DNA of 64,000 bases from a virus, in IMG/VR virus record IMGVR_UViG_3300020183_000020, positions 32,001 to 96,000 of that record; one strand, given 5' to 3'. Both the position numbers and the translations under genes were made by a program. The notes under the pieces are model-generated. The model was not told the DNA's origin. It did no database searches and saw nothing but the letters and a program-made list of their open reading frames with translations. This document shows positions 7,071 through 24,474 of the stretch, piece after piece (the first letter of the stretch is position 1; the number at the start of each line of letters is the position of its first letter).

Positions 7071-7123
7071 CTTTTATTCATTTATAATGCTCAATGAATG
7101 GATACAACACAAAGGATAGTGCA

Positions 7124-7435
7124 ATGAGAAATGAGATAATCCGCCTCCACAGAAGAATAGCCCGTCTAGAGCGTATTGCAGGTACAACCAAGTCCGCAGG
7201 GGGAGTGAAAGAACTCCTTATGGATTCGGTGGCAAAGAACAAGAATAAGCTGATTAAGGCGTGGGGGGGCAATCCCAACGATATAGACCTTGAGTTATGG
7301 TTTCAAAGTCTAGACGGTGGTGATGTCTATGGAGCCCTTAGGGATGCTCCCAACAGGGAGGTTGCCAAGATCATCAAGAACGACATCATCAAACCCATCG
7401 AGGATGACTCGATGGATGAGGATGTTCCCTTTTAA
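7124..7435 (+). CDS. Small putative virion-internal protein with IIRLHRRIARLE...TKSA tag
   Basis: AAGGA RBS before ATG 7124; late-like motif at 7074-7085. Confidence 0.65.
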   Translation: MRNEIIRLHRRIARLERIAGTTKSAGGVKELLMDSVAKNKNKLIKAWGGNPNDIDLELWFQSLDGGDVYGALRDAPNREVAKIIKNDIIKPIEDDSMDEDVPF

Positions 7436-10122: not shown

Positions 10123-12855
10123 CTATTTCTTAGCTAGGGAAGCAACCCTGAGAGCGGAGGCTTTAAGAGAAGCGATTCTAGCGGGGTTCCAATTGAAAGG
10201 AGCCTGTTCAAACTTGCCCTTTTCATCGAACTCAGAATATTGGATAACCTCTAGTTTACAGATGGGTTCTTCATCGGATTCAAAGCGTTTCTCATAACCC
10301 AAGAAGTCCACATCATTAGGGATAAGGTAAACCACCATTTTCTTTTGCTGTGGGTCGAACATGATTTGAGATGTGGAGTATAGACCATTAGGGACTTTCC
10401 TAACAGGGATAAAGGGGTCGTCCATTTTATCCCAGCGGTATCCGTAAAGTGCAGGGGCTGCATCTTTAATATCGGTCACATTGGATAGTATTTCTGTGGC
10501 GAGTTCTCTTCTTCTTAGGGAGGATTGGCGATCATCTCCGCTTTGATAACCTGCATCAGGATGGTTGATGCCGTGATTTGTGCGTACATGGAGTTTGTGT
10601 CTTTGTAGAGTTTTAACAACAGGTTGGTGGATGGAAGTTTGTTCTATGATTTTTGCCCGCGTCCCATCTGATATGATGGTATGTCCATGTACGGGTACAT
10701 GGAACGAGTTACCTGCGATGCACTTTAGGGCTTCTTCAATCGTTTTGCACTTGAGTGCATTTAGCAGGTAGAAGCCATCTTGAGAAATCATGGGTTCTTT
10801 CTTTTGATTACGGCTTGAACCTTCTTCTTCATCTTCGCGTACATTGAGAGCGGAGTTGACAATGGATATTCCATAGCTGTTTACGCCTTCTAGCCAACCT
10901 GTCACATTGTCGATGTAATAAAGAACCTCAACTCCGTCATACAGGTCGTGATAGATTTTGATTTCGGGGTTGTAGTTTCTATCCCTTATTTTCAGTAGGT
11001 AACGCTTGTCGTCTAGATCGAGGCAGGATATGACACAGGCGGATTTATTCATGGACGATTTCCTTTTGGATAGTTTCATTACTCTAGCTCCTGTTGAGTC
11101 GGATAGCCCTAAAGTTCTGCCCATTCTCCACCTCGCAGTTTGAGACAGCTTGCTTGGGTCTAAGACAAACTGCACAAATGTTTCGGCAAAATCTTCTTTC
11201 TCATTTGTCTTCCCGTAATCCGTGGGTATCCCCAAAGCCTGTTTCATTTCTTCGATAGTTCTCAGGTGTAGTTCTCTATCGGCTAGGGCGAACTCTTTTG
11301 TTTTATCCGATTCGAGTTGTAGTCCAACATCTTCCCACAATCCACTAAGCATAAAGATTCTGTTAATGTTTTCTGTAGCTCTTTCTAGAGCATCTTGTTC
11401 ATTCCAATCTTCACGGGAGTGTCCTCTAACTTCGTAGAAGTAGTGGAGAGGGTCTTTAAAGAACTCCATGACCACCTTGCCCTCGGCGGTGAGTCTAAAG
11501 TTAGAGGGTGTCATGAGTGGTTTACGCCCTGACAACTGAGTAAACAGTCCGTGTATTTTCAGAATATCTAAGGGCGAAGCATTGCTCTTGACGATTTTGG
11601 GGTCGCCCTTGGCTTCTTGAAACATAGTGAAGTATCGAGACCTGTCCTCAGGAGTGATTGTGAACTTTTTGAGGTTCTTTTCAAAGAAGTCTTCTTTCTC
11701 TCTGTTGATATATTCCCAACCGCTATCCCAAAACTCTCTTGCCTCTCTTGTGATGTAGTTTAGATGCACCCAATGTCCTATTTCATGGAGCAGTACTTCA
11801 TGGACAAAGTTAGCTAAGACTCGACCTTTTACGCCGAAGCTGTTTGTAAACATCTTTAAGGTTCGAGTAGTAGATATCCATTCACCTGCCGTACTTGAGC
11901 CCTGCTCTTGGCGGAGCAATTGGATAGAAGTAATCGAATCACGCATGATGGGGGTCATGTCGCGTTCTTTGAAGATTGCTTCTATGAAGTCGATCCCATC
12001 AAGGAAACTACGGACTTCATTATCCGAAAGGTCAAAGCTCTCAACATTGAAGCCTTTGTATTTGAATTTCTGATAGTCGATTTTCACGCTGTGTCTCTCT
12101 ATGTCTAGAGAAGCCAGCTTCATTTTGTCAATGGCGGTGTTGAGGCGTGCGATGTTAGGTAAACTTACTGCATCGGGCAGTTCAAGGATTTGTGAAATAA
12201 GTTGGCGATACTTCCCAACGGCTCTATTTAGCCCAAGATACTCTATTCTAGCTTCCGTACCTACGATGTTTTGTAGTACAGAGTCTCTTAGCCGACTAGT
12301 GAATTCCATGTATAGCTCTTGGAGAGCTTGTGCATTCCTAGTTGTCCGCAGGATTTTCCAAACATCGGTTTTAAAGTTTTCGATGATGATGTGAGGGAGT
12401 TCTATGGTTGCAGAAGACTTCTTAGATGGGGTGTGTTTAATCTTCCATGCTTTCCATTTAGCGTGTTGGGGGCTAGACTTCAAAGACGGATCGTGACCCC
12501 AATTTCTGAGACTTATTTCCCACTTGGACATTCCGCTTTCGCCCACAGGATCACCAGGCTTGCCACCGAGCATCCTAGAGTTAAATCCATTTTCTTGGGC
12601 TGCATTATCGAAGTCATCATTTGTCCAATCCTTAAAGGGTTTCTCTTTCCGTCTTTTGATTCGATGAAAAGAGTCATAACCTGATTGGATATCTCCTGAT
12701 TCTTTGGCCTCTTCTCTATTTATGGAAGCCAATAATCTATTGTCGTTTTCAGCCCAATCATCGAGGGCTTTTTGACTCATGTTAATAAGATCGTGCCACT
12801 TGTTGTATACTTCTTTTTTCTCTTCTTCAGACCTAGTTTTTGCGTATTTCATCAT
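10123..12855 (-). CDS. Polyprotein: DUF3140-like + zincin metallopeptidase + Ntn (Cys) hydrolase + C-terminal RIA/RVA tag
   Basis: INMS...WEISLRNWGHDP; HEIGH and PTDYGKTNEKEDFAETF; KSA-CVIS...KIRDRNY, WLEGVN, RTNHG; PARIASLKASALRVASLAKK. Confidence 0.75.
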   Translation of the reverse strand: MMKYAKTRSEEEKKEVYNKWHDLINMSQKALDDWAENDNRLLASINREEAKESGDIQSGYDSFHRIKRRKEKPFKDWTNDDFDNAAQENGFNSRMLGGKPGDPVGESGMSKWEISLRNWGHDPSLKSSPQHAKWKAWKIKHTPSKKSSATIELPHIIIENFKTDVWKILRTTRNAQALQELYMEFTSRLRDSVLQNIVGTEARIEYLGLNRAVGKYRQLISQILELPDAVSLPNIARLNTAIDKMKLASLDIERHSVKIDYQKFKYKGFNVESFDLSDNEVRSFLDGIDFIEAIFKERDMTPIMRDSITSIQLLRQEQGSSTAGEWISTTRTLKMFTNSFGVKGRVLANFVHEVLLHEIGHWVHLNYITREAREFWDSGWEYINREKEDFFEKNLKKFTITPEDRSRYFTMFQEAKGDPKIVKSNASPLDILKIHGLFTQLSGRKPLMTPSNFRLTAEGKVVMEFFKDPLHYFYEVRGHSREDWNEQDALERATENINRIFMLSGLWEDVGLQLESDKTKEFALADRELHLRTIEEMKQALGIPTDYGKTNEKEDFAETFVQFVLDPSKLSQTARWRMGRTLGLSDSTGARVMKLSKRKSSMNKSACVISCLDLDDKRYLLKIRDRNYNPEIKIYHDLYDGVEVLYYIDNVTGWLEGVNSYGISIVNSALNVREDEEEGSSRNQKKEPMISQDGFYLLNALKCKTIEEALKCIAGNSFHVPVHGHTIISDGTRAKIIEQTSIHQPVVKTLQRHKLHVRTNHGINHPDAGYQSGDDRQSSLRRRELATEILSNVTDIKDAAPALYGYRWDKMDDPFIPVRKVPNGLYSTSQIMFDPQQKKMVVYLIPNDVDFLGYEKRFESDEEPICKLEVIQYSEFDEKGKFEQAPFNWNPARIASLKASALRVASLAKK

Positions 12856-12906
12856 CAACCTACCTAGCGTATATTAGATACTAGGTAGGTTGATATAAAT
12901 AGATTA
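12854..12906 (-). promoter_or_regulatory. Late-type motif TAATCTATTTAT followed by a 14-bp hairpin covering the RBS
   Basis: ATCAACCTACCTAG-N13-CTAGGTAGGTTGAT. Confidence 0.65.
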
Positions 12907-24081: not shown

Positions 24082-24474
24082 ATGATAAGAAGAACCGCTA
24101 GTGAAGTTTTAAGAAGCCTTGAGATGAGAGTCTCCCGCCTTGAGGGTAAGACAGCGACTCGCAGAACCGCTGCCAAGAAAATCCGTTTGGATAGAAATGT
24201 GGAGCAGAGGGTGATGAGAGAGATCGCTGATCGGTTTGACATAGAAATGGATGAAGACTCATATTATTGGCACAACCCTGTTTTTGAGGTTTTAGCTGAA
24301 GAAAAGGGTAGCCGCAATGTGTCCGAAGGTTCAATATTTCAGCTTCTAAAGCTAGCGAATGACGACTACTATGTGGTGCTACAGGTCATCCCTTTCGCAA
24401 ATGACTCGGACATCATAGGTGTTTACGACAGCATCTCTGATGCCCTGCGTGATTTCAAGCTAGCCAACCGCTAA
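24082..24474 (+). CDS. Putative virion-internal protein with RRTASEVLRSLEMRVSRLE-GKTA tag
   Basis: GGAG RBS; TATTTCTTTTAT at 24022-24033. Confidence 0.7.
   Translation: MIRRTASEVLRSLEMRVSRLEGKTATRRTAAKKIRLDRNVEQRVMREIADRFDIEMDEDSYYWHNPVFEVLAEEKGSRNVSEGSIFQLLKLANDDYYVVLQVIPFANDSDIIGVYDSISDALRDFKLANR

Follow-up and report, generated by a model that had tools for sequence, protein, structure and literature searches.

In phages of the T4 and phiKZ types, head proteases strip propeptides of 7-24 residues off packaged proteins such as Alt; T4 gp21 cuts after L/I-x-E and the phiKZ and SPN3US proteases after S/A-x-E (PMC9026906, PMC10052503). T4 Alt has a C-terminal propeptide as well, and scaffold proteins hold many sites for the head protease (PMC9026906, PMC10052503). 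Herpesviruses have a homologue of the gp21/HK97-type phage prohead proteases in assemblin (PMC9026906). Here we analysed a 64,000-nucleotide stretch (the window), bases 32001-96000 of a 110,137-bp IMG/VR viral contig (IMGVR_UViG_3300020183_000020; genome label G000), and in it one open reading frame (ORF) that joins a DUF3140-like domain, a zincin and a Cys N-terminal nucleophile (Ntn) hydrolase. We found that the residues directly before the predicted Ntn nucleophile, Cys608, fall into classes that appear to follow the type of head protease encoded by the genome. We consider it moderately probable that a head-maturation protease acting in trans, and not self-cleavage, exposes Cys608 of a virion cargo enzyme.

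Like Alt and IPI-III of T4, whose capsid-targeting propeptides are cut by gp21, and the ejection proteins of phiKZ and SPN3US (gp175/gp245), the protein is proposed to be packaged cargo with short propeptides and a three-residue motif at the cut (PMC9026906, PMC10052503). The motif of its lineage, as read from sequence comparison, would be [R/K]-x-A↓[S/C], the arrow marking the predicted scissile bond, as against x-x-E↓ in the T4 and phiKZ systems. Whereas the cut in T4/phiKZ cargo is not known to create a catalytic residue, here it is predicted to expose the Ntn nucleophile and would amount to zymogen activation.

With a completeness of ~35% by CheckV, the contig represents part of a jumbo phage of roughly 300 kb. 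The ATG start of the ORF at 12855 agrees with the 910-aa database protein P0002. All sequence strings quoted in the first-pass annotation were located in the ORF: KKSSA at residues 146-150, HEIGH at 358-362 (11773-11787), PTDYGKTNEKEDFAETF at 545-561 (11176-11226), KRKSSMNKSA at 598-607, CVISCL...KIRDRNY...WLEGVN...RTNHG directly behind it, and the C-terminal tail NPARIASLKASALRVASLAKK. Cys608 is encoded by the TGT codon at 11035-11037, directly after KSA, as had been claimed. The fused protein recurs, in five sequence variants, on at least 16 contigs of JGI, Logan and ENA assemblies, so the ORF is not an assembly artefact. The whole ORF had no match in PHROGs, nor in phages by megablast. Its neighbouring genes are structural in appearance and are kept in a relative. 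The modules, with models built by AlphaFold2 (AF2), are as follows.

10123..12858, minus strand: whole ORF, a putative modular 'polyvalent' cargo protein; 911 codons from TTG 12858, 910 from ATG 12855, stop at 10123-10125
12415..12855, minus strand: DUF3140-like N-terminal domain (N-domain), residues about 2-148, from profile matches and conservation in relatives
12412..12423, minus strand: junction 1, K146-K147-S148↓S149, a predicted cut site with K-x-A-S equivalents in relatives
12088..12411, minus strand: predicted four-helix bundle opening the zincin module, residues 150-257; pLDDT 85 for the AF2 model of the zincin module, helical-bundle matches for model residues 1-108
11083..12087, minus strand: predicted M34-like gluzincin catalytic domain, residues 258-592; HEIGHWVH at 11764-11787, invariant EDFAE at 11182-11196
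11038..11079, minus strand: junction 2 and leader, M594-KLSKRKSS-M603-NKSA607, read as a shortened zincin tail and the ancestral Ntn leader M-x-K-x-A
10189..11037, minus strand: Cys-Ntn hydrolase domain, C45/C59/C89-like, residues 608 to about 890, from AF2, Foldseek, VIA and NF040521
11035..11037, minus strand: Cys608 codon TGT, predicted N-terminal nucleophile once K-S-A↓C is cut; invariant in the alignment and placed by structural superposition
10126..10179, minus strand: C-terminal tail, R894-I-A-S and R904-V-A-S, predicted trimming sites or docking tag with R-[I/V]-A↓S motifs

The C-terminal domain had been taken for an Ntn hydrolase from a few motifs. Its AF2 model (pLDDT 90.8, pTM 0.89), Foldseek and VIA confirmed the four-layer alpha-beta-beta-alpha sandwich of this fold. 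Foldseek gave 93 matches at E <= 0.001, every listed one a Cys-Ntn enzyme (IAT, BSH, PVA, NAAA), with the best E (1.6e-8) to IAT. Cys608, residue 1 of the model, superposed on IAT C103, NAAA C126, acid ceramidase C143, BSH C2 and PVA C1 (VIA Z 15-19.7). It holds the position of the nucleophile at the start of the central beta-strand and was invariant in both Ntn alignments (A1 and A5). The invariant residues of alignment A1 (C1, R18, D19, N61/N53, N154 and R176) are reminiscent of the Cys/Arg/Asp/Asn/Asn/Arg set in BSH and PVA, onto which they would map.

The module thus resembles the Cys-Ntn families C45 (IAT), C59 (BSH, PVA) and C89 (NAAA, acid ceramidase) in its fold and in having Cys first in the central strand. 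Unlike them, it is only 10-16% identical, has no alpha-subunit, is essentially confined to viruses and carries lineage-specific leader motifs. The NCBIfam profile NF040521 (C45_proenzyme, 'C45 family autoproteolytic acyltransferase/hydrolase') matched at E 6.4e-9 with 35.6 bits against a cut-off of 85, and Pfam AAT (PF03417) reached 14.3 bits against 23.2, while the relatives P0008 and P0027 carry precomputed PF03417 matches. Judged by these scores, which lie below the curated cut-offs, the module is a distant relative of the C45 families and not a formal member. PDB sequence and profile searches with the Ntn module gave no match.

Members of the family were found on 490 IMG/VR contigs and on 5 contigs of metagenome-assembled genomes (MAGs) among 185,579 species genomes; the family is thus all but confined to viruses. 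Among these five MAG matches, loci L153-L155 (contigs of a Thermoplasmata archaeon, an unclassified bacterium and a Flavobacteriaceae MAG) form a distant Ntn subgroup with the Cys right after the start codon and the motif C-[IV]-[VIM]-A-x-K-Y-F-K-x-x-G-[WF]-V-G-V-K-N-R-D-R.

An exhaustive HMMER search recovered 427 relatives, and leaders were read at 147 sites (best representatives at 50% identity) and, as a separate sample, at 79 IMG/VR DNA loci. The leader [K/R]-x-[A/S/G], here called KxA, preceded the nucleophile in 95 of the 147 representatives and 23 of the 79 loci. The leader x-x-E (xxE) was read in 42 representatives, 41 of them with L/I/V/M at P3, and in 55 loci. In eight representatives and one locus the Cys came right after the start Met (M↓C), and other leaders made up the last two representatives and none of the loci. 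In homologues the stretch before the Cys proved strongly conserved: in the 95 KxA members P3 was K (64) or R (31), and P1 was A (74), S (12) or G (9). Roughly one in four of the KxA members stands alone, with the five-residue leader M-x-K-x-A. The second class, [L/I/V/M]-x-E, reads exactly as the prohead-protease motif of T4 and phiKZ. A lipobox before the Cys was rejected, as the leaders have 4-7 residues, are basic, lack a hydrophobic signal and carry K/R and not Leu at -3. A conserved module of unknown nature, LLPI(M/L)DPxFN(L/V)RExxKQLxLLEDHLxHxxKRCxDCI, follows the Ntn module directly in many KxA-class polyproteins (P0032, P0033, P0062, P0066, P0067, P0074, P0075, P0086, P0091, P0095, P0102 and P0109).

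On the domain tree the leader classes were clustered, with several switches between them. Since the M↓C form has at least three origins on the tree, folding can do without the leader. Activation calls for a cut at precisely the bond before the Cys, and the tripeptide in front of it would accordingly report the P3-P1 specificity of whatever protease makes that cut.

Classical Ntn autoproteolysis would account for the same bond. On this alternative, the main rival, which we regard as unlikely though in need of serious weighing, the folded precursor cuts A607-C608 by an N-to-S acyl shift from Cys608, the conserved tripeptides reflect subfamily needs or descent, and the head protease at most trims linkers elsewhere. 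Small P1 residues (A/S/G), as in the KxA class, are typical of self-processing Ntn enzymes; self-processing relatives also tolerate very different P1 residues (G, F, I), which speaks the other way. Autoproteolysis leaves unexplained why P3 is invariably basic in one lineage and why P1 Glu goes with a hydrophobic P3, the T4-type motif, in the other.

We compared leader class with head protease on 23 long contigs. None of the ten KxA contigs had an S77 protease, and six, including every contig at least 59% complete, had a protease of the type found in G001, a near-complete KxA relative (290 kb, 93% complete) in which neither S77 nor S78 was found. Among the 13 xxE or M↓C contigs the counts were six with S77 and none with the G001-type protease. 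The S77 genomes are spread over three different xxE clades, of which one sits nested next to KxA clades, and the G001-type genomes over at least six KxA subclades. Leader class therefore appears to track the head-protease type of the genome, which favours a head protease acting in trans over pure autocatalysis.

The candidate protease of G001 lies in a head module with the following genes, in order (locus L008 is G001 154000-173999).

First in gene order: portal-sized 1062-aa protein
L008 860-2245: 461-aa 'head maturation protease' (phrog_18299), putative catalytic part at roughly residues 50-265 with a conserved Ser182; CxxC...CxH insert of zinc-ribbon-like appearance
L008 2205-3758: 517-aa acidic scaffold-like protein with five R-x-A-S sites and an EF-hand-like match (E 1.5e-5)
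L008 4532-5410: 292-aa major head protein (phrog_2522)
L008 9433-10101: ClpP-type protease candidate, ~4 kb further downstream

Relatives of the G001-type protease and capsid protein were found in Bacillus phage G (gp19, gp27), Tunturiibacter phage Tunturi_5, Rhodococcus phage E3 and cluster-C mycobacteriophages. In the PDB the protease had no match by sequence or by profile, and a literature search for a published cleavage motif in the phage-G lineage (phage G, Tunturi_5) returned none. On the xxE side, Chryseobacterium phage MA9V-1 (OR050627.1) has a stand-alone homologue (gp182) with the leader ...F-L-N-E↓C, for which Cys13 is the predicted mature N-terminus, and encodes a T4-type S77 domain. 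This domain (126606-126944, locus L004) sits in a 1349-aa open frame, an unusually large protease fusion.

We next asked how often the motif occurs across whole genomes, with observed counts set against a shuffled expectation and z-scored. R.AS occurred 27 times in G000 (8.8 expected, z 6.5) and 70 times in G001 (22.9 expected, z 9.8); for R[VIT]AS the counts were 14 (1.7 expected, z 9.9) and 34 (4.3 expected, z 14.6). In the xxE genomes MA9V-1 and G013, R.AS was found 9 and 12 times (9.4 and 9.0 expected, z -0.1 and 1.0), while MA9V-1 had 170 copies of [LIV].E[AS] (112.5 expected, z 6.1). Permuted controls (R.SA, SA.R, R.GS, R.AT and others) were flat. The first-pass annotation had argued that K-x-A is a real cut site. 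In that bare form the proposal failed, as K-x-A is barely enriched genome-wide (z 3-5), and bare [K/R]-x-A was rejected as the cleavage motif for its weak enrichment; what stood was the longer form, through the enrichment of R-[V/I/T]-A-S. The likely cleavage motif of this lineage is [R/K]-x-A↓[S/C], and with Cys an isostere of Ser, K-S-A↓C can be taken as one form of [R/K]-x-A↓S.

Paralogous N-terminal tags, written (M)RTASEVLRSLExR[IV]ARLEG-RTAS or more broadly (M)RRTASEVLxSLExR[IV]ARLEG[RK]TA(S), account for many copies of the motif. Each tag is a helical start of ~25 aa with two flanking R-T-A-S motifs and unrelated sequence behind it; tags were seen in at least 8 ORFs of G000 and at least 12 of G001, for example at 24082-24474 (+) and 7094-7435 (+) of the window and at genome coordinates 6431, 27585 (-), 102467 and 105489 (-). 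A basophilic kinase site (R-x-x-S) in the tags is disfavoured by the invariant Ala at -1. That tag copies alone make up the excess was also rejected: with tags masked, G001 still had 48 R.AS (22.2 expected, z 6.0) and 106 [KR].A[SC] (53.4 expected, z 7.6), and a modest excess stayed in G000.

Outside the tags, R.AS sites in G001 lie in the scaffold-like protein (5), in the protease (V-R-V-A-S at residue 25) and near the C-terminus of the portal-sized protein (K-R-V-A-S), all positionally conserved in orthologues. Motifs of the R-[VI]-A-S type stand behind the Ntn core in 33 of 85 KxA proteins and in none of 10 xxE proteins. The window protein has its own matching sites at K146-K-S↓S, K605-S-A↓C, R894-I-A↓S and R904-V-A↓S. 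Autoproteolysis leaves unexplained this recurrence of [R/K]-x-A-S at scaffold, protease, tags and other module borders, and equally the match between leader and protease. The maturation-site consensus of assemblin is (V/L/I)-x-A↓S. The phage sites share its Ala at P1 and Ser at P1' but have a basic P3 where that of assemblin is aliphatic, and we treat the resemblance as a lead.

Taken with trans cleavage as the preferred reading, the proposed course is this. A late gene of a ~300-kb jumbo phage would encode a modular cargo protein, made of the N-domain, an M34-like zincin and a C45-like Cys-Ntn amidohydrolase joined by short basic linkers of the form [R/K]-x-[A/S]↓[S/C]. The Ntn module would be made inactive, with Cys608 buried in a peptide bond. 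During capsid maturation the head protease would cut at K-S-A↓C, and probably at K-K-S↓S and R-I/V-A↓S as well; the likely cutter is a phage-G-like serine protease, whose gene in complete relatives neighbours those for portal and scaffold. Cys608 would thereby gain a free alpha-amino group, and the enzyme would be active only within the virion or after ejection into the next host. The wider proposition is that this is an Ntn zymogen family armed by head proteases, in which the pre-Cys tripeptide reports P3-P1 specificity and phage-G-like proteases form a new [R/K]-x-A↓[S/C] class, resembling assemblin A↓S, that organises a cargo-tagging system. For this we see the chances as evenly poised.

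Several points weigh against cleavage in trans. The nearest families (C45 IAT, NAAA, acid ceramidase and PVA, with IAT precursor and mature forms in 2x1c/2x1d) activate themselves, and the NCBIfam match carries 'autoproteolytic' in its name, so by analogy the window enzyme may do likewise. In the AF2 model the scissile bond runs straight into the first strand of the central sheet, where an outside protease may hardly reach it in the folded precursor; the same feature suits autoproteolysis. The leader classes mostly go with clades (as few as 9 changes suffice for the tree), as descent would also give, and the correlation with protease type accordingly rests on few independent contrasts. G001 has the ClpP-type candidate too, which makes it ambiguous which protease acts, and the window's own protease is unseen, as its contig does not contain the head module. 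The masked R.AS excess in G000 is modest (16, 8.5 expected, z 2.6). In the KxA genome G003 (IMGVR_UViG_3300028177_000001, 288 kb, 62% GC) R.AS is weak (59, 45.8 expected, z 1.9), K-x-A-S is in excess at z 3.3 and the G001-type protease is only 42% identical; the motif of this branch may differ, or a simple ORF caller may dilute the signal with spurious ORFs at 62% GC. Finally, we infer capsid packaging (its context being a late-type upstream motif and the structural-gene neighbourhood), the identity of the protease, cleavage at exactly A607↓C608 and the substrate of the hydrolase.

The zincin module stands directly upstream of the junction. In 18 homologues (alignment A3) H209, E210, H213 and H216 (HExxHxxH) were invariant, as were E406, D407, F408, A409 and E410 (EDFAE), ~190 residues downstream. 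The HExxH and the downstream Glu ligand that characterise gluzincins are thus both present, and zinc binding is predicted. The top match of the model in a Foldseek-independent aligner was the catalytic domain of anthrax lethal factor (1yqy_A; Z 12.7, root-mean-square deviation 3.4, 172 aligned, model residues 109-443), followed by PPEP-3 (Z 9.1) and PPEP-2 (Z 8.5). Foldseek returned weak matches, all of them gluzincins. Searches with sequence profiles gave only Pfam Zincin_1 at E 0.15 and no NCBIfam match, so that membership of a profile family was not found. On the strength of the model, the module is M34-like at fold level with ~16% identity, and no toxin function is implied.

Like the M34 zincins (lethal factor and PPEP-1/2/3), the window zincin has its HExxH and a downstream Glu within an E-x-F-A-E helix. 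Unlike them, it is 14-16% identical, has no Pfam ATLF match and belongs to a phage protein without sign of toxin function. It adds to the M34 plan a helical insertion of ~190 residues that separates HExxH from EDFAE, one more invariant His and the N-terminal four-helix bundle. The relatives P0191 and P0193 have a second HExxH module (VLAHEIGHWV...) beyond the R-V-A tail, a tandem zincin.

The position of this module suggests that the zincin in the same polypeptide, or a packaged paralogue, might itself cut the basic linkers and release the modules. Lethal factor and other M34 enzymes favour basic residues on the upstream side of their cleavage site, which would suit the linkers. Autoproteolytic MPTase domains have also been predicted in polyvalent phage proteins (Iyer et al. 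2017, PMC5512222). Against this, we detected no homologue of this zincin in G001 (93% complete) or G004 (100% complete), a comparison that concerns this zincin family only, and both keep K-x-A-led Ntn modules; as a general K-x-A protease the zincin was rejected on this ground. The syntenic orthologue lacks a zincin altogether, and many stand-alone proteins have M-x-K-x-A↓C. We give this explanation a very slim chance, slimmer than that of any other considered here.

The orthologue in question, in G001, is a 469-aa protein of N-domain and Ntn module with the junction ...A-M-R-K-K-T-A↓C. Other relatives consist of N-domain and zincin only (607-660 aa) and end just beyond the point where the window protein passes into its Ntn leader. 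The closest Ntn relative, P0041, is 72% identical, stands alone and begins M-K-K-Q-A↓C, its Met at the position of window Met603. The first-pass suggestion that formerly separate genes were fused is well supported by these comparisons, and since the syntenic orthologue has no zincin and P0041 starts alone at the equivalent Met, the fusion is recent. An N-domain and zincin gene was joined to a stand-alone pro-Ntn gene, whose old start and Shine-Dalgarno (SD)-like sequence remain as MNKSA.

The proposed internal ribosome-binding site was also there: AAGGA lies at 11061-11065, 8 nt upstream of the in-frame ATG of MNKSA (11050-11052). Translation from this ATG might give a separate pro-Ntn protein, MNKSA-C..., whose leader is removed by a host or other peptidase, with the long fusion as a by-product. 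In this genome a strict SD-like motif stands upstream of 25% of called gene starts and only 3% of internal ATGs, yet M594 and M603 both have one in front of them, and in the G001 orthologue GAGGAAAGCC-ATG is retained; stand-alone relatives begin at the same position. The SD-like bases are also simply Lys/Arg codons, however, so a second start is unproven, and only 25-40% of the genes of this genome use such a motif. The leader would still have to be removed, so a processing step remains, and the fused frame is kept in all five variants. A functional second start at M603 is possible, but that it is the source of the enzyme we regard as highly improbable. Upstream of the start of the whole ORF we read one further element.

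12858..12906, minus strand: putative upstream control region, TA-N5-TTTAT (12895-12906) and then a 10-bp perfect hairpin

The arms of this hairpin are ACCTACCTAG at 12881-12890 and CTAGGTAGGT at 12858-12867. The 3' arm has an SD-like AGGTAGG and abuts the TTG/ATG starts, and the hairpin is a possible translational control of the cargo gene.

The N-domain matched DUF3140 (PF11338) weakly, at E 0.015 and 16.1 bits against a gathering score of 25, yet over profile positions 2-91 of 92. DUF3140 matches at E <= 0.01 were found in 18 of 30 relatives of the window protein (best E 1.2e-4). The closest ESM Atlas clusters were viral DUF3140 clusters (0.89), which we take as a lead only. Across 30 otherwise unrelated architectures, in proteins 12% identical elsewhere, 56 columns of the N-domain were invariant, and each genome has one copy. 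A scan of viral contigs with the relative P0003 gave N-domain matches only. In most relatives the N-domain is followed by a K-x-A-S linker (KKAS, KTAS, KNAS), and the cargo behind it varies: GNAT, NIF phosphatase, ChaC/GGACT, HAD, LigT, Ham1 and ART-PolyVal. The first-pass label of a three-enzyme polyprotein holds for the zincin and Ntn folds but overstates the case for the N-domain, which has no known catalytic function. We found nothing on DUF3140 in the literature.

These architectures recall the polyvalent proteins of phages and conjugative elements, which combine several unrelated effector domains, a zincin-like peptidase among them, in a late or virion gene setting with rapid domain shuffling (Iyer et al. 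2017, PMC5512222). The window protein likewise has at least two unrelated domains (zincin and Ntn), its relatives show shuffled architectures and one of them matches ART-PolyVal. Unlike the proteins described by Iyer et al., a single-copy conserved N-domain heads the variable cargo, and processing is apparently tied to the head protease and not to an MPTase. Neither Ntn hydrolases nor DUF3140 are mentioned in the polyvalent-protein paper (PMC5512222; 0 occurrences) or in the jumbo-phage survey, and a literature search for virion Ntn hydrolases found nothing.

Known themes are the trimming of packaged proteins by head proteases, polyvalent proteins and Ntn zymogens; new is the testable idea that the pre-Cys tripeptide can be read as the specificity of the head protease. 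If true, this would be, to our knowledge, the first case of capsid maturation creating the catalytic residue of a packaged enzyme. It would act as a safety catch, by which an amidase that could do harm stays silent in the cell that makes it and becomes live in the next host. The concept of polyvalent proteins would then take in Ntn hydrolases as well as a conserved, DUF3140-like head domain. Head-protease specificity in uncultured phages could be read purely computationally, from the residues before the Ntn Cys, and a new [R/K]-x-A↓S specificity would be predicted for a large group of phages related to phage G and the cluster-C mycobacteriophages.

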